Assembly: GCA_045222195.1 (NCBI GenBank)
Contig: JBGUXN010000003.1
Location: forward strand, 27,311-91,310
DNA from: Bacilli bacterium
Lineage (GTDB): Bacteria; Bacillota_I; Bacilli_A; RFN20; CAG-826
Reading direction: 5' to 3'
DNA length: 64,000 bases
A program made the position numbers and the translations under genes. Under the pieces are notes generated by a model. It did not search any database. It saw nothing but the letters and a program-made list of their open reading frames with translations, and was not told where the DNA came from. Shown one piece after another: positions 7,427-24,354 of this stretch; within the stretch, counting starts at the first letter, position 1, and each line of letters opens with the position of its first letter.

Positions 7427-7500
7427 ATCTTGACCTCCTTTCTTTGAATGTGACTTTTTGACAAAAAGACATTAAATCCAATTCATTAATATCTTTCGTC

Positions 7501-7541
7501 ACTTAAATGTTAATTTATGAACCTTAAACACACTTAAAATC
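7501..7541. promoter_or_regulatory. direct-repeat element (AC(C)TTAAA repeats), copy 1, in the divergent VTC/lipoprotein intergenic region
   Basis: TTAATTTATGAACCTTAAACA (7510-7530) recurs with a 1-nt indel at 16081-16102. TTAAnnn repeats lie about 11 and 21 bp apart. It overlaps a possible minus-strand promoter, TTAACA(7513-7508)-16-TATTAA(7491-7486). Confidence 0.4.
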
Positions 7542-9818: not shown

Positions 9819-10610
9819 TTAACCAAGCGCTATATCAAGCACCATCATGAGCACAAAGCCCACCGCTAAACCGATGGTGGCTAAGTTAGAGTGACTACCT
9901 TCATTAGCTTCTGGTATGAGTTCTTCAACGACGACGTAGATCATGACGCCCGCAGCGAACGCGAGTACGAATGGTAAGATTGTTGACACGAATACGGTAA
10001 CTAAGATAGCAATAACCGCGGCAATTGGTTCCACTACACCAGAAATAAAGCCGTACAAGAACGCTCTTCCTTTTGATAAGCCTTCTTCTTTTAAAGGCAT
10101 GGAAACAATTGCGCCTTCTGGGAAGTTTTGTATGGCCATACCTATAGCTAAGGCTAACATGGCATTGCCATTAACATCTGAACCACTATTTTTAGCGACG
10201 ATATAACTAGCGATAACAACACCAACCGCTAAACCTTCAGGAACATTATGAAGAGTGACGGCTAACATCATCTTAAATGTTCTAGATAATTCTCTTTTAG
10301 AAACACCTTCTTCTTGCTTATTGATGTGCATGTGAGGCACTAAATAGTCAAGAAGTAACATAAATCCGACACCTAAGATAAAACCAATCGCCGGATATAA
10401 CCACATTCTAAAGTCGCCTTTAGTGTAGGTATTAATAGCGGGTTGAAGTAAAGACCAAATAGAAGCCGCAATCATGACACCAGAGGCAAAGCCTAATAAG
10501 ATCTTTTGTAATTTAGGATTGATTTCTTTTCTTAAAAAGAAAACCATCGCACTACCTAAGGTTGTGCCCACTAATGGAATAAATAAACAAATAATTACTA
10601 AAGGAGTCAT
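9819..10610 (-). CDS. ZIP-family divalent metal transporter
   Basis: 263 aa, polytopic. 'HNVPEGLAVG' and 'QNFPEGA' signature helices. Confidence 0.8.
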   Translation of the reverse strand: MTPLVIICLFIPLVGTTLGSAMVFFLRKEINPKLQKILLGFASGVMIAASIWSLLQPAINTYTKGDFRMWLYPAIGFILGVGFMLLLDYLVPHMHINKQEEGVSKRELSRTFKMMLAVTLHNVPEGLAVGVVIASYIVAKNSGSDVNGNAMLALAIGMAIQNFPEGAIVSMPLKEEGLSKGRAFLYGFISGVVEPIAAVIAILVTVFVSTILPFVLAFAAGVMIYVVVEELIPEANEGSHSNLATIGLAVGFVLMMVLDIALG

Positions 10611-11443
10611 TATTCATCACCCTCCGCACGTTTATTATGGTCGAAGATTGGAGGATATAAGTTTTCTCCTTCTTCTAAATTCGCTAATTTACATATTGCT
10701 TCATGCGTTCTTTTCGCGAGATCAATTCTTTGCTCGGCTTCTGGAAGAGTTTCATCTTTATAAATTGGTTCACCAACGGTGACTGTAATTGCCGCATCTT
10801 GTTTAAAGATATGTTTTCTAATCCAAGATGGTTTTCTATAAGAAAAACCTAAAGGCAATATCGGCTTATTATAACGGCACGCTAAAGAGAAGGCACCTAA
10901 TTTAAATGGTCTAATATACGGATAATATTCCCACATGCTTCCTTCAGCGTATACATGAAGCCATCCATCGTTTTCTAAATGTTTTCCCACCGCTTCATTC
11001 ATAGCACGCATGCCCTCTTTATTGTCACTTGGAATAGGCACACCGTTGACAGCGCGCATCATTTTACCGTTTTCCCCTCTAATATTCATATCCCAAATAA
11101 GGACATATGGCTTATATGGTCTAAGAGCTTTCATATTAGCGATAAAATCCCATAAATGAACATGGTTAGAGATAGTAACCGCTCCATGTTTAAGTTGGTC
11201 TTTATAGTATTTAAGGTTCTTTCTACCTTTAACTTTTAAACCCATCATAAAGAAACAGAGAATTGGCCATACTAAGATATTAAGGACTACTCTAGTCCAG
11301 AACTTCGCTGTTCTTAACTTAAAAGAATTATCAAAGTATGGATAATCAGCATCAAACACTAAGCCATTATTCTTTTTAACAACTAGATAATGTTGATCTG
11401 TATATTCTGTATATGGGTACTTTGTACTGTGTGGGTGAAACAT
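10610..11443 (-). CDS. lysophospholipid (1-acyl-sn-glycerol-3-phosphate) acyltransferase family protein
   Basis: HX4D motif 'NHVHLWD' and 'YAEGS' motif III. Confidence 0.7.
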   Translation of the reverse strand: MFHPHSTKYPYTEYTDQHYLVVKKNNGLVFDADYPYFDNSFKLRTAKFWTRVVLNILVWPILCFFMMGLKVKGRKNLKYYKDQLKHGAVTISNHVHLWDFIANMKALRPYKPYVLIWDMNIRGENGKMMRAVNGVPIPSDNKEGMRAMNEAVGKHLENDGWLHVYAEGSMWEYYPYIRPFKLGAFSLACRYNKPILPLGFSYRKPSWIRKHIFKQDAAITVTVGEPIYKDETLPEAEQRIDLAKRTHEAICKLANLEEGENLYPPIFDHNKRAEGDE

Positions 11444-11476
11444 AGGATATGTTTAGATTATCACAAATAATAAAAC

Positions 11477-11503
11477 AAAAAAAGAAGCGGTAATTTCCGC
11501 TTC
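11477..11503 (-). terminator. intrinsic terminator of giant ncRNA copy A
   Basis: Minus strand: GAAGCGG-AAAUUA-CCGCUUC followed by U7. Confidence 0.8.
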
Positions 11504-12545
11504 CTTTCTTTGAACCGCGATATCCGAATCATACATTGCTGTAAGCGATATCGTAGTTAGGCTCCTTAGGCTGGTGATGCTTCTTGTTGTCGATGTGTTT
11601 TGAACTGAGTAGCGCATCGGTGGCCAGCTTTCTTAAGTCATTAGCTCAAGACTGTCATCCTTTTCGTCATGTCCGGTACCGGATTTATCTCTTCAAGCCT
11701 TAACGAGAGGTCCGGTGACTATTGCTAGTCAGGGAGGATTGTACCGAGAACCACAGAAGTGATTCGTTGCTAGAGCAACCAGTTGACTAAGGGGTTTTTA
11801 ATCCTTAGAGGCTCCCATGTCAGCTTAGAGGAGCTGGTTGACTGATCTAGTCTTAAGTTCTTTAGGCCGTTTCTTCGCGGAATTTCCTATCCTGGGTTCT
11901 TCCGTTATCATCGCACGTTAGGTTGAGTAATGCGATTTAGGCTTTTCCGTAGTGATTTGCACTACTGGATCTTTGTTTTCCCTCTTTGTCCTATGTCCGG
12001 CGGTGGAATTACGCTGTCAAACTCTAATTCAGCGACCACTGTAGCAGGGAGGTTTGCCGTTTAGATGTCCCGAAGGGCATCAAGCCTTGGTGGGGGTGAT
12101 CATTGACCAGGAGATTTAATCCTGGAACCTTACTATCAACGTCGTTTTAGCGGTGATCTGTGGTTAAGGCTGAGTTTTTACTTTAATTAGGTTCCCATTC
12201 GCTCACTGTGCCATTACTGACCAGTGGGTTTATTTCAGGTTTTGAGTTGCTTTAGCCTGAAGGTGGGTGTGGGACGGGTTATTAGCCTTCGTCATCCTCT
12301 TCGTCGTGTCGGGCGGTGGTTTTAAGCTGTCAAACTCTAATTCAGCTTCCACTCTAGGAGGGAGGATTTCGCCCTGATCGATGCAAGCACCGATCCGCCA
12401 GTACAATCATTAATCTGGTTTAAGATTTTGATCCCAGAAACGCGTTAGCAACTTACCTACCTGCGTTGATTGATTTACCTGGACTTGAGATACTAAGAAT
12501 CTATCAATTCTTAGTGTCTCACCCACTCGGTTTCCCCAGCGGGTT
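11477..12545 (-). ncRNA. giant structured ncRNA, copy A (~1.07 kb, family unassigned)
   Basis: No ORF on either strand. GC-richer than the flanks. Bounded by a promoter and a terminator on the minus strand. Many hairpins carry GCAA/UUCG/CUUG tetraloops in minus-strand sense. Helices covary with copy B. Confidence 0.8.
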
Positions 12546-12550
12546 AGTAT

Positions 12551-12579
12551 AGTATGCACTTATTTTATTTCTGCGTCAA
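12551..12579 (-). promoter_or_regulatory. sigma70-type promoter of ncRNA copy A
   Basis: Minus strand: TTGACG (12579-12574), 17-nt spacer, CATACT (12556-12551). Preceded by more than 100 bp of A/T tracts. Confidence 0.55.
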
Positions 12580-12816
12580 TACTTTTTTTTAAAAATTTTT
12601 TTATTTTTTTATAAAATGTATTTTAAATAATATTTTATATTATTTATTTTTTGATAATTTTTTATATAAATATTTAAAAATAGAGTTTTTTATACGCGTA
12701 TATGCGTGATAAATAGAGATTTTATTAATTTATTCTTCTTCGTTTTCTTTAACGGTTCTAATAACTTCTCAAATTGAACAGTCTTCGTGATGACAGTTAT
12801 GATGCTTTTTGAAGAC

Positions 12817-12843
12817 AAAAAAAGAAGCGGTCAATACCGCTTC
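12817..12843 (-). terminator. intrinsic terminator of giant ncRNA copy B
   Basis: Minus strand: GAAGCGG-UAUUGA-CCGCUUC followed by U7. Confidence 0.8.
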
Positions 12844-13865
12844 CTTCTTTGAACCGTGATACCCGAATCATGCATTGCTGCAAGCGGTATCCAAGTTAAG
12901 TTCCTTTGGCTGGTGATGCTTCTTTCTTGGTAAGGCGTTTTGAATTAGTTAGCGTCTTACTGGCCAGCTTCCTCAAGTTATTAGCTTTGAGGCTGTTTCC
13001 CTCTTCGTCTTGACCGGTGCCGGATTTACTCTGTCAAACTTTAACACAGATGCCGGTGACTATTGCTAGTCAGGTGGGGTCGTACCGATATCATCATTAC
13101 TGATGATCTTTGCTAGTGCAACCAGTTAACGATGGCTCTTTAATCCTTCGAGGCTCCCATACTAATTTAGAGGAGGCGGTTGACTTATCTAGTCTTAAGT
13201 TCTTTAGGCCGTTTCTTGGCGGGATTTCCATGCTGGGTTCTCCCGTTATCTCCACACGTTAGGTTGAGTAATGTGGATTAGGCTTTGCGGTTAAGTTTTC
13301 TTTAACTCGCTTTTGTTTTTCCCTCTTTGTCCTATGTCCGGCGGAAGTCTTACGCTGTAAAACTCTAATTCAGCGGCTTCTGTAACAGGGAGGTTTGCCG
13401 TTTAGATGCCCTTGCGGGCATCAAGCCTTAGTGATCATTGGCTGGGAGCTTTAATCCCAGGTCCTTACTATCAACGTCGTTTTAGCGGTGATCTTTTGGT
13501 TAAGGCTAAGTTTTCGCCCATTCATCAGGAGTGCCATTACTGACCTTCTGACTTATTCCAGGTTTTGAGTTGCTTTAGCCTGGATGTGGGGAGTGGATGG
13601 GTAATTGACCTTCATCATCCTCTTCGATCTTGTCGGGCGGTGGTTTTAAGCTGTCAAACTCTAATTCAGCATCCACTGGAGCAGGGAGGACTCGCCCTTG
13701 AGTGATTGCTCACTCTGCCAGTACAATGATTGATCTGAGCTTTTTCTTTGATCTCAGAAGGCGCTTTAGCAACTTACATACCTGCGCTCATTGTTTTACC
13801 TGGTCTTGAGATACTAAGAATCTATCAATTCTTAGTCTCTCACTCACCTCGTTCCCGGGGTGGGT
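12817..13865 (-). ncRNA. giant structured ncRNA, copy B (~1.05 kb, paralogue of copy A)
   Basis: Collinear with copy A end to end. Same promoter and terminator architecture. Substitutions relative to A are largely compensatory within helices. Confidence 0.8.
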
Positions 13866-13871
13866 TTCTAT

Positions 13872-13901
13872 AGTATGCCACAAATAAATAATTTAATGCA
13901 A
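13872..13901 (-). promoter_or_regulatory. sigma70-type promoter of ncRNA copy B
   Basis: Minus strand: TTGCAT (13901-13896), 18-nt spacer, CATACT (13877-13872). Preceded by A/T tracts. Confidence 0.55.
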
Positions 13902-14070
13902 GCACTTTTTTAAATTTTTTTTAATTTTTTTATAAATTACTATTTTAAATAACTTTGTTATTTACATTTTTAAAAAATTTTTTAAATAAATAAAAATAAT
14001 TGTTTTTTAATGAAAAAATAATGCTTTTTTATGCATATATACGTGAATTGTTTAAATTAAATATTTTTAT

Positions 14071-14092
14071 AAGAAAACGCGCCTGGGCGCGC
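14071..14092 (-). terminator. intrinsic terminator of the two-component operon
   Basis: Minus strand: GC-only stem CGCGC/GCGCG followed by UUUUCUU, directly after the kinase stop codon. Confidence 0.6.
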
Positions 14093-14101
14093 TCTCAAAT
14101 C

Positions 14102-15397
14102 TTAAATAATAATTGTAAATATAATGCGGTTATCTTTGACTATAGCAGATATCTTTCCTTTATGAAGTTCCACTATTTCTTTAGCGATGCTTAAGCCAAT
14201 ACCAGATCCTTCTTTTTTATTAGTACTTGGACTACGATAGAATCTTTCAAACAATAAATTAGTGTCTATTTGATGGTTTTCTACGACATCGTTATAAAAG
14301 ACAATAGTCACCTTTTTATTATTTCTACTGACTCTCACACCGACTTCACCATTTGGTTTGGTGTATTTTAAAGCATTATCTAAGAAGACATAGAATAATT
14401 CATTAATTAAGTATCTATTACCAGTCATACCGATATTTTCTTCGATATTCTTCGCAAACTCATAATTGTTCTTTTGATATGTTGGTAAGAATGCTTCAAT
14501 ACACTCATTAGCGAGCTTACTAAGTGAGAAGTCCTCAAATGGGTAATTCTTTAAATCATTTTCGTCAAGTCTAGAAAGGATGACTAATTGATTGGTCATC
14601 GATGTTAAACGATTGACTTGATCATGGATGGATTCTGTCCATTCGTTTTTACCATTATCCATTTCAATAATTTCTAAGTCTGTATTGATAATAGTTAAAG
14701 GTGTTTTTAATTCATGAGAAGCATTAGTAATAAAGGCTTTTTGCTTACGATATGATTCTTCATTTGTTTTAAAAACGAAGAAAGAGGCTATCACGATGAG
14801 GCCCGCCACTACAGCGTAACCAATCGCGGAAATACTGACTGATGATTTAACAAAATCATAATAATTGGTCATTCTTTCATGTATATCAATGAAAGCAAGA
14901 TAAGTATTATTGTTTCTTTTGTCTCTAGAGTATCTAAAGTCTTTAGTAACACCACCTTTAGTGCCCTTATTATAGATTTCTGTAGCTAAAGCCTTACCCT
15001 CTTCTTCAGAAATAGAGAAGACGTGCATGAAATCGGAATAGTTAATATCACCATTTTCATCAAAGGACACAACGAAGTAATGTTCTCTCATTAACTTTTC
15101 ATAGTTTCCCATACCTGGCCAAGTCCAACCACCTTGTTGGCCACCTTGACCACCTTGACCTTGCCCACCTGGATTCATTGGATCATATGAATAAGAATAC
15201 GCTCCTGGGTCATAGGAATATGGTTCTGGGTCAGCATATAGCTTTTCTTGATCCACGACGAGAACAAGAGATTTTTTAGCATCGTTTTGAATACCAACAT
15301 AGTTATAGATATCAATAGAAGCAATGGCCGCGGTTAAAACCACTAAAACAGCGATTAAAGAAACTAGTATGAAACGCAACCTTAATCTTTTAATCAT
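14102..15397 (-). CDS. sensor histidine kinase (HisKA + HATPase_c)
   Basis: Two TM helices. H-box 'SHELKTPL', N-box 'LDNALKYT', G-box 'GSGIGLSI'. The extracytoplasmic loop is low-complexity and Y/G/Q-rich. Confidence 0.85.
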   Translation of the reverse strand: MIKRLRLRFILVSLIAVLVVLTAAIASIDIYNYVGIQNDAKKSLVLVVDQEKLYADPEPYSYDPGAYSYSYDPMNPGGQGQGGQGGQQGGWTWPGMGNYEKLMREHYFVVSFDENGDINYSDFMHVFSISEEEGKALATEIYNKGTKGGVTKDFRYSRDKRNNNTYLAFIDIHERMTNYYDFVKSSVSISAIGYAVVAGLIVIASFFVFKTNEESYRKQKAFITNASHELKTPLTIINTDLEIIEMDNGKNEWTESIHDQVNRLTSMTNQLVILSRLDENDLKNYPFEDFSLSKLANECIEAFLPTYQKNNYEFAKNIEENIGMTGNRYLINELFYVFLDNALKYTKPNGEVGVRVSRNNKKVTIVFYNDVVENHQIDTNLLFERFYRSPSTNKKEGSGIGLSIAKEIVELHKGKISAIVKDNRIIFTIII

Positions 15398-21396: not shown

Positions 21397-24354
21397 TTAG
21401 AGAGAGATTGTACCATCTGAACATTTAACAGAGGTAAGGCTTGGACAAGATGATTTCCAATTGCTTGGCTTACTCATAGCGTTCCATTGGTCTTTTGTGC
21501 CGTTATACTTAAGTTGGGCAAGTGATTCACAATCCTCAAACACACTAGCGCCAATCTTGGTCACTGAAGCAGGGAAAGTAAGGTCATCTAAGACTGAACA
21601 ACCCCAGAATGCTTGACTCTTAATTTCTGTGACACCATCTGGAATGACAACATGATTGAGTTTTCTGCATAAGTAGAATGTCATGCTATCAATAACAGTG
21701 ATTTTATTTGTTAAGAAAGTAACGCTTTCTAAATCAACACAAGATGTGAAGCACTGTTTTCCAAAAGTCTCAACGCCACTACCGATGACAATGCTGGTCA
21801 AAGCGTCGCAATGAGCGAAAGCAAATTCACCAATAGAAGTGACGCTATTTGGAATGACGAAATCACCTAGGTTATCCGCATAGTAGAAACCTTTGTTGCT
21901 AATTGTGGTCACGCTATCATCAATAGTGATGACACAAGAACAATGATAGAAGGCTTCTGCATCAATGGTTGTGACACCAGAAAGAGTAATTCTTTCAAGA
22001 CTATTCATATTCATGAATGAATGGTAGAAAACGGTTCCGCCTGTCACGGTCACTGTTTTTAATGTTTTTGGGAAATAATAGGTATCTGTAGAACCTGTTT
22101 TTGGTGACATGCTAGCACCATAGGTGATGCTGGTACCATAAGTAGTTGTATTAAATACACTGCCTAATAATGTACTAGCTGTGCCACTTGTAGCGGATTT
22201 ATCGCTGCCGACGAAAGGAACTGTCAAATTAACTAAAGCATTAGCACCCGCTAAACCATGTGCGGCAATTGCTTCCACATCATTGGTAATAACGATATCG
22301 GTTAAGGCAGTATTTTCGAATGCTTTTTCACAAATTGCACCACCAGTAGCGGTCACAGAAGTAAGGCTAGAAGGAATATAGTATGTGCTGCTACCTTGTT
22401 GAACAGGTGCGCAGCCATCTAATTCGGCTTGGCCAAATAAGGTACCTAAAACGCCATACATTGGAACTGAAAGAGTGGTTAATGCTTTACAGCCTTCAAA
22501 GAGACTCCAACCAAGTTCTAATACTTTGTTATTGGCTAAATCATTAGAAGCATAGAAACTCACTAAGGAATGGCAGTTTTTGAAAGCATAGTTACTAATT
22601 TTAGTAACACTAGCAGGAATAACCATCGCTGTAATACCAGAGCGTTCAAAGGCATATTGACCAATTTCAGTAACGTTATTAAGGTTCACAGCTGTGATCT
22701 TTCCACAGCGGTTGAATGCACCATAAGCGATTTGACCACCATTGACGTTGACGGTTTTTAAACTATCTGGAATATAAGCGACTTTACTATAGTAACTATT
22801 ATAAGGTTGATCTGTGGCAGTTAAGCCTGTACCTGAAGATGTACCAAAGAAATAACCAAATAAGGCATCAGTGCCAGTGGAATCAATCTTTTGTCCCACG
22901 AATGGCACGGTTAATTCTTGTAAGGAAGTCATATTAGCGAATGCTTCTTCACTAATTTTAGTAACACTACTAGGAATAACTAATTTTGTGATGTTTTTAT
23001 GATCAGCAAAAGCTTGTTCTCCAATACGGGTGACTGGTTGGCCATCAAAGAATGCATCAGGAACAGTAATTGCACCAGCATAGTTTTTATTAACTAAGCC
23101 TCTACATTGCCAGCCATCATCATATTCTAAGTCCATAATGAAGATGGATTCATAATATTGCGCAGTATAAGTGACATCTGCGGTGACTGGGGCTAATGCT
23201 TTGTCCCAACCGGAGAAATAATACTCTTTATCCTCGCTATCTGGTCTACTTGGTTCAAGGTTACCATAATCAGGCATTGTGCCTCTAGCAACGTTTTCAT
23301 CCACTCTTAAGACATCACCGTTATAGTCTTTCCAAGTAACGGTAAAGAAGGATGGAGCCATTTTGACCGCCATTAATCTAAATGTTTGAGGATAGTTATT
23401 GTCATAACCAATATAGAAATGATTGGTTGGATCAATATAGACTGTTTGTCCACTAATAATTGTTGTATCAGGAGTAAAGCTACCTAATTTACTACTAACA
23501 TAGTTAGAGAATACAGTTTTACCTTCATTTAAAGACATGCCATTACAAGCAATTTTGAGAGTATCACCAGCGCTATTTAAGGATGCAGTAAAGCTTGTGA
23601 TTCTTTCATCCGCAAATGGAGGGAATGAATTTTCTTGAGCACCCCAGGCAGTGACTGCTGCATTCACAACGTTTGTTGGCCAAACTGCTGGTTCTGGAGG
23701 AGTGGTTTCAATAAATTTTGCAGTATAGATAGCATCAGAATACGCTGGAACTGGAGTTGGATCCCAACCATCAAATGCATAATATTTACCACCACTAGAT
23801 GGTTTTCTTGGTGTATCACCAGCATATTCAGGGGTCGCACCTTCACCACAGGTTGAAGTATAGAAGGTGGTACCGTCATAGTTTTTCCAAGTAATTCTAT
23901 AAATATGAGCAGGAGTACTTGATTCAGTGAATGTCGCTACGTATGTAGCATCCGCAGTGGCAGGAACGACAGTTGGTGTCCAACCAGAGAAAATATAGTA
24001 TTTAGCGGCATAGTTAGGATCACAAGGATGTCTTGGTGTTTCATAGTCATAAGAAGGCATTGTTCCTTCTGGGACGTTGTAATCAATTTCTAAAATACTA
24101 TCATCGTAGTTTTTCCAAGTAATGGTATATGTTTTTTGTTCTGCACTTGTAATTGGTTCTTCACTGCTACTACTCACTGGTGGAACTGTCGGATTTGGTG
24201 TATCAGAAGAAGATTCCACTGGTGGATTTGGTGTATCAGAAGATTCCACTGATGGATTATCTGAACTAGATGAACGAGAGACGTGTCTAGAGCAGCCACA
24301 GCTGACTAAAATCATCGATATAGCGGTTAAAAGGATAATTCCTTTGCTTTTCAT
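21397..24354 (-). CDS. large surface lipoprotein with InlB-B-type repeats and BspA-type leucine-rich repeats
   Basis: Lipobox 'ILVSCG'. S/P-rich linker. Three 'Y.ITWKNYDG...F.GW' repeats. Long array of '.IP.SVT.IG..AF..C..L' LRRs. Confidence 0.7.
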   Translation of the reverse strand: MKSKGIILLTAISMILVSCGCSRHVSRSSSSDNPSVESSDTPNPPVESSSDTPNPTVPPVSSSSEEPITSAEQKTYTITWKNYDDSILEIDYNVPEGTMPSYDYETPRHPCDPNYAAKYYIFSGWTPTVVPATADATYVATFTESSTPAHIYRITWKNYDGTTFYTSTCGEGATPEYAGDTPRKPSSGGKYYAFDGWDPTPVPAYSDAIYTAKFIETTPPEPAVWPTNVVNAAVTAWGAQENSFPPFADERITSFTASLNSAGDTLKIACNGMSLNEGKTVFSNYVSSKLGSFTPDTTIISGQTVYIDPTNHFYIGYDNNYPQTFRLMAVKMAPSFFTVTWKDYNGDVLRVDENVARGTMPDYGNLEPSRPDSEDKEYYFSGWDKALAPVTADVTYTAQYYESIFIMDLEYDDGWQCRGLVNKNYAGAITVPDAFFDGQPVTRIGEQAFADHKNITKLVIPSSVTKISEEAFANMTSLQELTVPFVGQKIDSTGTDALFGYFFGTSSGTGLTATDQPYNSYYSKVAYIPDSLKTVNVNGGQIAYGAFNRCGKITAVNLNNVTEIGQYAFERSGITAMVIPASVTKISNYAFKNCHSLVSFYASNDLANNKVLELGWSLFEGCKALTTLSVPMYGVLGTLFGQAELDGCAPVQQGSSTYYIPSSLTSVTATGGAICEKAFENTALTDIVITNDVEAIAAHGLAGANALVNLTVPFVGSDKSATSGTASTLLGSVFNTTTYGTSITYGASMSPKTGSTDTYYFPKTLKTVTVTGGTVFYHSFMNMNSLERITLSGVTTIDAEAFYHCSCVITIDDSVTTISNKGFYYADNLGDFVIPNSVTSIGEFAFAHCDALTSIVIGSGVETFGKQCFTSCVDLESVTFLTNKITVIDSMTFYLCRKLNHVVIPDGVTEIKSQAFWGCSVLDDLTFPASVTKIGASVFEDCESLAQLKYNGTKDQWNAMSKPSNWKSSCPSLTSVKCSDGTISL

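Follow-up and report, generated by a model that had tools for sequence, protein, structure and literature searches.

The closest described systems to the RNA considered here are the large ornate non-coding RNAs ROOL, GOLLD and OLE, together with a much smaller motif, cow-rumen-1. GOLLD measures about 800 nucleotides (nt) and OLE about 610 nt, and both ROOL and GOLLD often reside in phages or prophages. ROOL, with a mean length of 581 nt, was first found in rumen metagenomes. Homo-oligomeric quaternary structure is reported for OLE, ROOL and GOLLD (PMC12286853). The cow-rumen-1 motif comes from Weinberg et al. 2017 (PMC5737381), where it is described in the supplement only and goes without mention in the main text; Rfam files it as RF02946, a 'Gene; sRNA' of 61 nt. 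Here we analyze a 64,000-nt stretch of DNA from a Bacilli bacterium (contig JBGUXN010000003.1, positions 27,311 to 91,310; hereafter the window), the minus strand of which carries a tandem pair of genes, units A and B, for what looks, from its sequence, like a novel class of structured bacterial RNA of unusual size; all that had been catalogued of it was a fragment of 61 nt. A literature search, beyond the reach of which lay the supplement of Weinberg et al., where clustering of the motif may already be noted, found no description of an RNA of about 1 kilobase (kb) containing cow-rumen-1, and the names 'cow-rumen-1' and 'RF02946' were absent from the full texts searched.

Two tandem genes and their repeated fold

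The two genes lie between an acyltransferase open reading frame (ORF; 10610-11443) and a histidine-kinase ORF (14102-15397), both on the minus strand. Within 11444-13999, the longest ORF on either strand is 58 amino acids (aa), none thus reaching 60 aa, and the G+C content is 0.42-0.48 in both units versus 0.24-0.37 in the spacer and flanks. An initial annotation, made from the letters alone, had recognized this G+C-rich, ORF-free stretch and two collinear paralogous units of about 1.05 kb in it; on the minus strand these align end to end with 80% identity. It had also assigned a sigma70-type promoter and an intrinsic terminator to each unit (Table 1), signals that are indeed present and recur in homologues. 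An A/T tract (AAAAAATTTTTAAAAAAA-like), TTGCAA or TTGACG, a spacer of 17-18 nt and CATACT precede most of the homologous RNAs, a few having a variant -10 hexamer (e.g., GATAAT in locus L014), and their 3' ends always consist of a G+C-rich hairpin and a U-tract, the stem sequence varying between clades. An A/T-rich, UP-like tract extends 5' of promoter A to about position 12620, and promoter B falls under the scanner threshold because of its -35 hexamer. Conservation of promoter and terminator defines a discrete, predicted transcription unit of about 1,050 nt and thereby fixes the boundaries of the gene, while promoter architecture alone suggests strong expression. The A/T-rich tracts upstream of the two promoters (12586-12684 and 13906-13992) are themselves duplicated, with 70% identity, so the duplication that gave rise to units A and B included the promoter region. 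Five contigs of the metagenome collection (L028, L032, L034, L043 and L055; 1,012-1,046 nt whole) have almost exactly the length of the RNA; they begin 10-25 nt past the predicted transcription start site and stop in or just short of the terminator. Two of them, L034 and L043, come from different samples and share an identical first base; L055 has a chimeric 3' end.

Scanning the whole window at Rfam gathering thresholds returned six matches, all to RF02946 and all on the minus strand. There are three per unit, 296-324 nt apart, covering model positions 1-61, and every score (62.5-77.4 bits) exceeds the gathering score of 53.4, which places the six hairpins within this family; 45 more matches were found in ten related loci. 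Together, the three motifs span 183 of the ~1,050 nt, or about 17% of each RNA. Individual motifs have no promoter or terminator bracketing them and are spaced 300-330 nt apart within a single 1.05-1.7-kb unit, so the stand-alone gene implied by the Rfam type does not apply to them. Moreover, the RF02946 model omits the 5' partners of its 'single-stranded' tail, which form two pseudoknot stems, S1 and S2. What was catalogued as the cow-rumen-1 'sRNA' makes up one sub-domain of a much larger predicted RNA. A permissive cmscan of 11300-14200 (E-value up to 1) gave, beyond cow-rumen-1, only chance-level matches to SpF25 (E 0.46) and sR44 (E 0.22); OLE, ROOL, GOLLD, HEARO, raiA, RNase P, tmRNA, introns and ribosomal RNA gave none. 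The initial annotation could assign the RNA to no family and held that a significant Rfam match would refute its reading. As to the first point, no described large-RNA family fits, although a 61-nt one matches three times per unit; as to the second, the matches are formally of the kind foreseen, yet an orphan motif of this size extends the finding and does not explain it. No tRNA, riboswitch, T-box or other known RNA reached the gathering level anywhere in the window.

Evidence for the fold comes from covariation among homologues collected with unit A (see below). At a clustering threshold of 95% identity, 27 representatives remained, with 61-100% identity to unit A; their alignment is referred to as A2. 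RNAalifold proposed 183 pairs on A2, 118 of them with compensatory double changes. This model was curated by removing four groups of little- or non-varying long-range pairs and by adding pseudoknots, resulting in 192 pairs in 42 helices. Across its alignment cells, 95.6% are paired, versus 29-42% when the 3' partner is slid by 1-3 columns; pairs changed on both sides number 120 of 192, versus 28-40 in the slid controls, and none of 500 column shuffles attained any observed measure. In minus sense, the structure contains 260 G.U and 78 A.C cells, an excess that identifies the minus strand as the folded one; the strand call of the initial annotation is thus upheld, and the six Rfam matches agree with it. 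The compensatory differences it had noted between A and B likewise belong to helices that covary across the homologues: helix 26 holds AUCGCA/UGCGAU in A and UCCACA/UGUGGA in B, helix 42 holds GAUAUC in A and GAUACC/GGUAUC in B, and the swap of UUCG for GCAA belongs to helix 19. The stem that it saw wholly replaced (12376-12395 versus 13700-13715) is a hypervariable hairpin with a CUUG or GCAA cap. The longest ORFs in the 27 diverged sequences range from 47 to 92 aa and differ in strand, frame and position, none being conserved. Covariation therefore establishes the predicted fold, and the ORF comparison the absence of coding potential. With three three-way junctions and three pseudoknots per RNA, the family shows these descriptive features of the large ornate non-coding RNA class: a size above about 500 nt, lack of a conserved ORF, covarying helices, multistem junctions and pseudoknots. 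The initial annotation had likened recurring GCCUAA motifs to half of an 11-nt GNRA tetraloop receptor; a complete receptor (CCUAAG...UAUGG), for which no systematic search was made, was not noticed on reading the sequence.

The long-range pairs dropped during curation are A2 columns 18-19/1197-1198, 308-311/601-604, 658-661/1006-1009 and 462-464/594-596. All are invariant or nearly so and clash with better-supported pairs, among which are the within-module stem S2 and the covarying outer helix of the second three-way junction. Two of these groups concern complementary elements of different modules. Through columns 308-311/601-604 (unit A, about 12299-12302 with 12048-12051), the invariant GAGG of module 1 can pair with the CCUC of module 2, and through columns 658-661/1006-1009 (about 11998-12001 with 11673-11676) the palindromic CCGG of modules 2 and 3 can pair. 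As alternatives to the within-module stems, these modeled cross-module pairs could mediate inter-repeat or intermolecular contacts.

A further feature, unnoticed in the initial annotation, is that each RNA is internally triplicated. Segment profile searches on A2, using all 27 sequences, found the three modules M1, M2 and M3 to be homologous to one another (E 1e-12 to 1e-25) and the 5' domain to share homology with each of the two segments between modules (E 4e-15 and 1e-11). The RNA thus comprises three repeats of about 320 nt, 43-56% identical when aligned, in the order R1-R2-R3, followed by a unique tail of about 180 nt. Every repeat contains a three-way junction and a pseudoknotted module, along with a variable hairpin capped by a tetraloop. 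The outer helix of the junction is CYAG/CURG in R1 and R3, and AGCC+N with N'+GGCU in R2, where it covaries strongly. When RNAalifold was run on an alignment of all repeats (81 sequences), hardly any consensus emerged (-9 kcal/mol), the divergence of the paralogues being too great for MAFFT; their homology was demonstrated by profile nhmmer instead. Judged by this homology, the repeats are ancient tandem duplications.

In each module, the cow-rumen-1 hairpin sits within an H-type pseudoknot, the 3' tail of the Rfam model pairing upstream of the model. In S1, four nt 5' of the module (NGGN) pair with GCCS (NCCN) of the block CCGCCSGACA: GGGC/GCCC in module 1, CGGC/GCCG in module 2 and CGGU/ACCG in module 3, some orthologues having AGGC/GCCU or GGU/ACC. 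S2, which crosses S1, joins CCUC to GAGG in an extended NNCCUC/GAGGN'N' whose two flanking nt covary. In module 3, these flanks occur as AU/AU, UU/AA, AC/GU, UC/GA and AA/UU and are perfectly complementary in 25 of 27 sequences (columns 943/1025, AU 14 and UA 11; columns 944/1024, UA 19 and CG 7). Covariation (GC/CG/UA) is also seen in a mini-stem that lies between S2 and the cow-rumen-1 hairpin; this is a short form of a 6-base-pair hairpin of module 3. The same loop, bulge and single-stranded nt are invariant in all modules, be they three or, in fused relatives, five. Mimicry of Shine-Dalgarno and anti-Shine-Dalgarno sequences by GAGG and CCUCC was considered and set aside; a structural role is likelier because these elements pair within each module, as indicated by the flanking covariation.

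Table 1. Features of units A and B in the window.
Feature	Coordinates	Strand	Details
Unit A RNA, ~1,069 nt	11477-12545	minus	Predicted transcription start 12545 +/- 3; 3' end within U-tract at 11477
Unit A promoter	12551-12579	minus	-35 TTGACG, 17-nt spacer, -10 CATACT; scanner match
Unit A R1	12295-12545	minus	5' leader, three-way junction (12398-12482), variable CUUG hairpin, module M1 (12294-12374)
Unit A R2	11979-12294	minus	Linker hairpins, three-way junction (12086-12170), UUCG hairpin, module M2 (11981-12059)
Unit A R3	11655-11978	minus	Linker hairpins, three-way junction (11770-11850), hairpin, module M3 (11657-11746)
Unit A unique 3' tail	11477-11654	minus	Covarying helices 38-42, intrinsic terminator at end
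Unit A terminator	11510-11477	minus	14 pairs, then U-tract; scanner match
cow-rumen-1 match A1	12296-12355	minus	76.4 bits; Rfam
cow-rumen-1 match A2	11981-12042	minus	74.4 bits; Rfam
cow-rumen-1 match A3	11659-11718	minus	62.5 bits; Rfam
AT-rich intergenic spacer	12558-12816	minus	G+C ~0.24; low-coordinate end (12558-12579) overlaps promoter A
Unit B RNA, ~1,049 nt	12817-13865	minus	80% identical to unit A
Unit B promoter	13872-13901	minus	-35 TTGCAT, 18-nt spacer, -10 CATACT, A/T-rich tract before it; sequence reading and conservation in homologues
Unit B R1	13618-13865	minus	
Unit B R2	13320-13617	minus	
Unit B R3	12996-13319	minus	
Unit B tail	12817-12995	minus	
Unit B terminator	12843-12817	minus	Stem 12843-12824, GAAGCGG/CCGCUUC + U7; read from sequence
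cow-rumen-1 match B1	13619-13679	minus	77.4 bits; Rfam
cow-rumen-1 match B2	13322-13383	minus	64.9 bits; Rfam
cow-rumen-1 match B3	13000-13059	minus	68.7 bits; Rfam

Homologues, repeat number and gene neighborhood

Sequence collections were scanned with a 34-column degenerate pattern derived from the module, and nhmmer was run with unit A on the loci found. The pattern occurs in 27 stretches of the species-representative genome collection and in 42 metagenome contigs. All 27 genome stretches belong to metagenome-assembled genomes labeled Bacilli, Bacillales or 'uncultured Erysipelotrichaceae', and all titles that name a source refer to the ruminant foregut (goat, yak, water deer, water buffalo, reindeer, cattle RUG), a few titles giving none. 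The nhmmer run matched 77 stretches, distributed over 68 loci; 48 of these stretches are full-length, and E-values reach 1e-196 among loci from metagenome-assembled genomes. Each pattern-bearing locus has the large RNA or a part of it cut by a contig end. Two loci, L036 and L030, are nearly identical to the window, tandem pair included, and duplicate RNA genes, tandem or nearby, also occur in L029, L050 and L013. Two module patterns found no match in 2.9 million viral contigs, and blastn found none in 50,697 phage records or 72,556 plasmids. The family is so far restricted to uncultured, small-genome Bacilli of the ruminant gut. In these foregut bacteria, the predicted RNA probably plays an important cellular role, to judge from its conservation and apparent promoter strength.

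The number of repeats can change. Five modules, 300-330 nt apart, were located by Rfam matches in the second gene of L013, in L014 and in L052; L060 has four and is cut at the contig start. In L014 (2510-4237, minus), the five modules lie between one promoter (4237-4209) and one terminator (2529-2510), no internal promoter or terminator signal being present on the RNA strand, and L013 (1100-2779, minus) looks alike. Since five modules can thus occur in one unit, the repeat must be separable. Segment profiles resolve these RNAs of about 1.65-1.7 kb into R1 R2 [R3::R1] R2 R3 followed by the tail, the hybrid repeat beginning R3-like and finishing with an R1-type module. Such an order is what one would expect if R3 of one gene in a tandem pair had recombined unequally with R1 of its neighbor (2 x 3 - 1 = 5), and the five-repeat forms are apparently fusions of two genes arranged as in the window.

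Annotated neighbors are ordinary chromosomal genes. In the close clade (at least 79% identity), a gene for a 277-aa PlsC-type acyltransferase lies downstream on the same strand in 20 loci, and one for a putative surface protein of about 750 aa lies upstream in 18. Distant homologues have unrelated neighbors, and the downstream gene differs or is on the opposite strand (L010, L013, L016, L021 and L042). The initial annotation had drawn attention to membrane-lipid genes around the RNA; the acyltransferase and, among the Pfam-annotated neighbors of the window, a cardiolipin synthase-like PLD protein are there, along with a two-component system, but the link is specific to one clade and does not hold for the family, and shared ancestry within that clade explains it most simply. 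No transposase, integrase, reverse transcriptase or maturase was noted among the neighbors annotated or read, only a subset having been annotated; with neither such a gene nor an Rfam intron match, the RNA does not qualify as a group II intron or other mobile RNA. Between the U-tract of terminator A and the first ATG of the acyltransferase ORF, about 34 nt (11443-11476) contain no obvious Shine-Dalgarno sequence and include TGTGATAAT, an extended -10-like element. Farther away, positions 21397-24354 (minus) encode a protein of 985 aa whose leucine-rich repeats are of the BspA type (LRR_5, E 8.5e-96); surface proteins of this type are common in gut anaerobes. In L029, a divergent homologue, a c-di-GMP-I riboswitch aptamer (7457-7533, plus strand; 57.3 bits) lies about 180 nt past the second of two tandem RNA genes.

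Possible roles of the RNA

On balance, we lean toward a stand-alone, trans-acting structured RNA that serves as a multivalent scaffold or platform, and consider this somewhat more probable than the contrary. Units A and B would be paralogous genes, each transcribed from its own sigma70-type promoter with UP-like tract to its own intrinsic terminator. The resulting transcript of about 1,050 nt would fold into three ~320-nt units and the unique 3' tail, and each repeat would offer an equivalent docking site for one common partner, be it a protein, a ligand or another RNA surface. Multivalency is suggested because the invariant nt are identical in every module and because changes in repeat number are tolerated. 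High expression, action in trans and scaffolding or multivalent binding are what we infer from the sequence. Several observations weigh against such a role. No protein gene is linked to the RNA family-wide among the neighbors of homologues. The repeats may not be functionally equivalent, as they share only 43-56% identity with one another and yet are each well conserved among orthologues, and ~320 nt of multi-helix structure goes far beyond what a simple protein-binding site requires. The single-sequence folding energy of R2 is no better than that of shuffles (z +0.40 in sense, -0.64 in antisense), so the structural case rests on covariation and is evolutionary, not thermodynamic; covariation cannot speak to S1 of module 3 or S2 of module 2, neither of which varies. 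Finally, the RNA-length contigs could be transcript assemblies or, equally, assembly breaks at repeat boundaries.

The main rival explanation, which we regard as rather unlikely, is a purely RNA-based architecture, in which the repeats act as protomers, covalently joined, and pack together as a pseudo-symmetric particle, maybe oligomerizing further, and in which function lies in the assembly. Such a particle would be the counterpart, within one molecule, of the nanocages of ROOL and GOLLD or the dimer of OLE. Internal triplication takes in essentially the whole chain; invariant complementary or self-complementary elements of different repeats (GAGG/CCUC and CCGG/CCGG) are paired across modules by RNAalifold; GNRA, UNCG and CUUG loops are many and GCCUAA motifs recur; and known large ornate RNAs are described as RNA-only homo-oligomers (PMC12286853). 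Yet the cross-module pairs never vary, while within-module pairing of the same nt has covariation support, and a change from three to five repeats by simple recombination is easier to reconcile with beads on a string than with a closed symmetric shell. By analogy with the homo-oligomeric cages of ROOL and GOLLD, the ~320-nt repeat might be a self-contained protomer of a single-chain pseudo-symmetric nanostructure, 3-mer or 5-mer, the stoichiometry of which would be set by the gene and altered by recombination between tandem copies; we hold this, too, to be doubtful.

Other alternatives fare worse. The placement of the acyltransferase gene directly downstream, on the same strand, in 20 loci, together with the PLD protein and the two-component system nearby, would suit a cis-acting leader or attenuator (e.g., a multi-aptamer sensor) controlling this PlsC-type gene beyond terminator A, but the synteny is limited to the close clade, no downstream gene family is constant, and what follows unit B is unit A, not a protein gene. 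Every copy, besides, has a strong terminator of its own, with the last module about 150 nt upstream of it, and no obvious antiterminator pairing was seen, short of a systematic search, all of which makes a leader improbable. Slightly less probable still is a catalytic RNA, whether a ribozyme or a machine for processing or modification, with active sites in the invariant nt of the modules: its size, pseudoknots and invariant unpaired blocks (CCGCCSGACA, UUAGAG and ACGUUGAUAG) would fit, but there is no similarity to Rfam ribozyme or intron families, the genomic context suggests no substrate, and we know of no precedent for three to five copies of one active site in a single chain. As for the locus being no RNA gene at all, but an array of repeats at the DNA level, a decayed mobile element, what is left of a prophage, or clustered genes for small proteins, the two-level tandem repetition and a G+C content unlike that of the flanks are what one might expect. 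That the compensatory changes are strand- and register-specific already contradicts it, and against it stand also the lack of a conserved ORF, the absence of matches in the viral (two patterns), phage and plasmid collections, and the mobile-element genes not noted among the neighbors annotated or read; we give it hardly any credence. The multivalent scaffold thus remains the reading that we prefer.

Relation to described RNA systems

Should the transcript exist as predicted, it would represent a new class of giant structured bacterial RNA of 1.05-1.7 kb, and an orphan Rfam 'sRNA' would be re-annotated as a fragment of an RNA about 17 times larger. A build of three or five large pseudoknotted units, copies that have diverged from one another, is unusual among bacterial non-coding RNAs and would offer a natural system for studying how large RNA architectures evolve through duplication and fusion. 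At least 27 diverse, well-aligned and covariation-rich sequences make the family a target for cryo-electron microscopy and for benchmarks of three-dimensional structure prediction. If the repeats were indeed protomers, no larger structured RNA outside the ribosome would be known in bacteria, and the family would be a natural case of RNA quaternary structure evolving through internal duplication.

Among known systems, cow-rumen-1 is the closest, since all six module hairpins and their 3' tails fit its full 61-position model, with strand and habitat in agreement; what Rfam presents as a stand-alone small RNA is, in the window and in all 68 related loci, a sub-domain of a ~320-nt repeat. Tandem riboswitch aptamers, such as those for glycine, similarly repeat homologous structured modules within one transcript, but these belong to 5' leaders with expression platforms, whereas the RNA of the window has no family-wide downstream gene and an independent terminator for each copy. 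CsrB/RsmZ-type RNAs also repeat a conserved element along one trans-acting RNA, with copy number varying among relatives. Their repeats are simple, GGA hairpins of about 10-20 nt, in contrast to a multi-helix unit of ~320 nt with a pseudoknot. With ROOL, GOLLD and OLE, finally, the family shares a gene of its own, freedom from ORFs, a length of several hundred nt or more, covarying helices, multistem junctions and pseudoknots, in spite of showing no detectable homology to them (no Rfam match at E up to 1). Unlike ROOL and GOLLD, it has no phage association in the collections searched. At a predicted 1,050-1,700 nt or so it is longer than all three, as the initial annotation had proposed from the ~1.05-kb units, and it is further set apart by internal repeats that vary in number.

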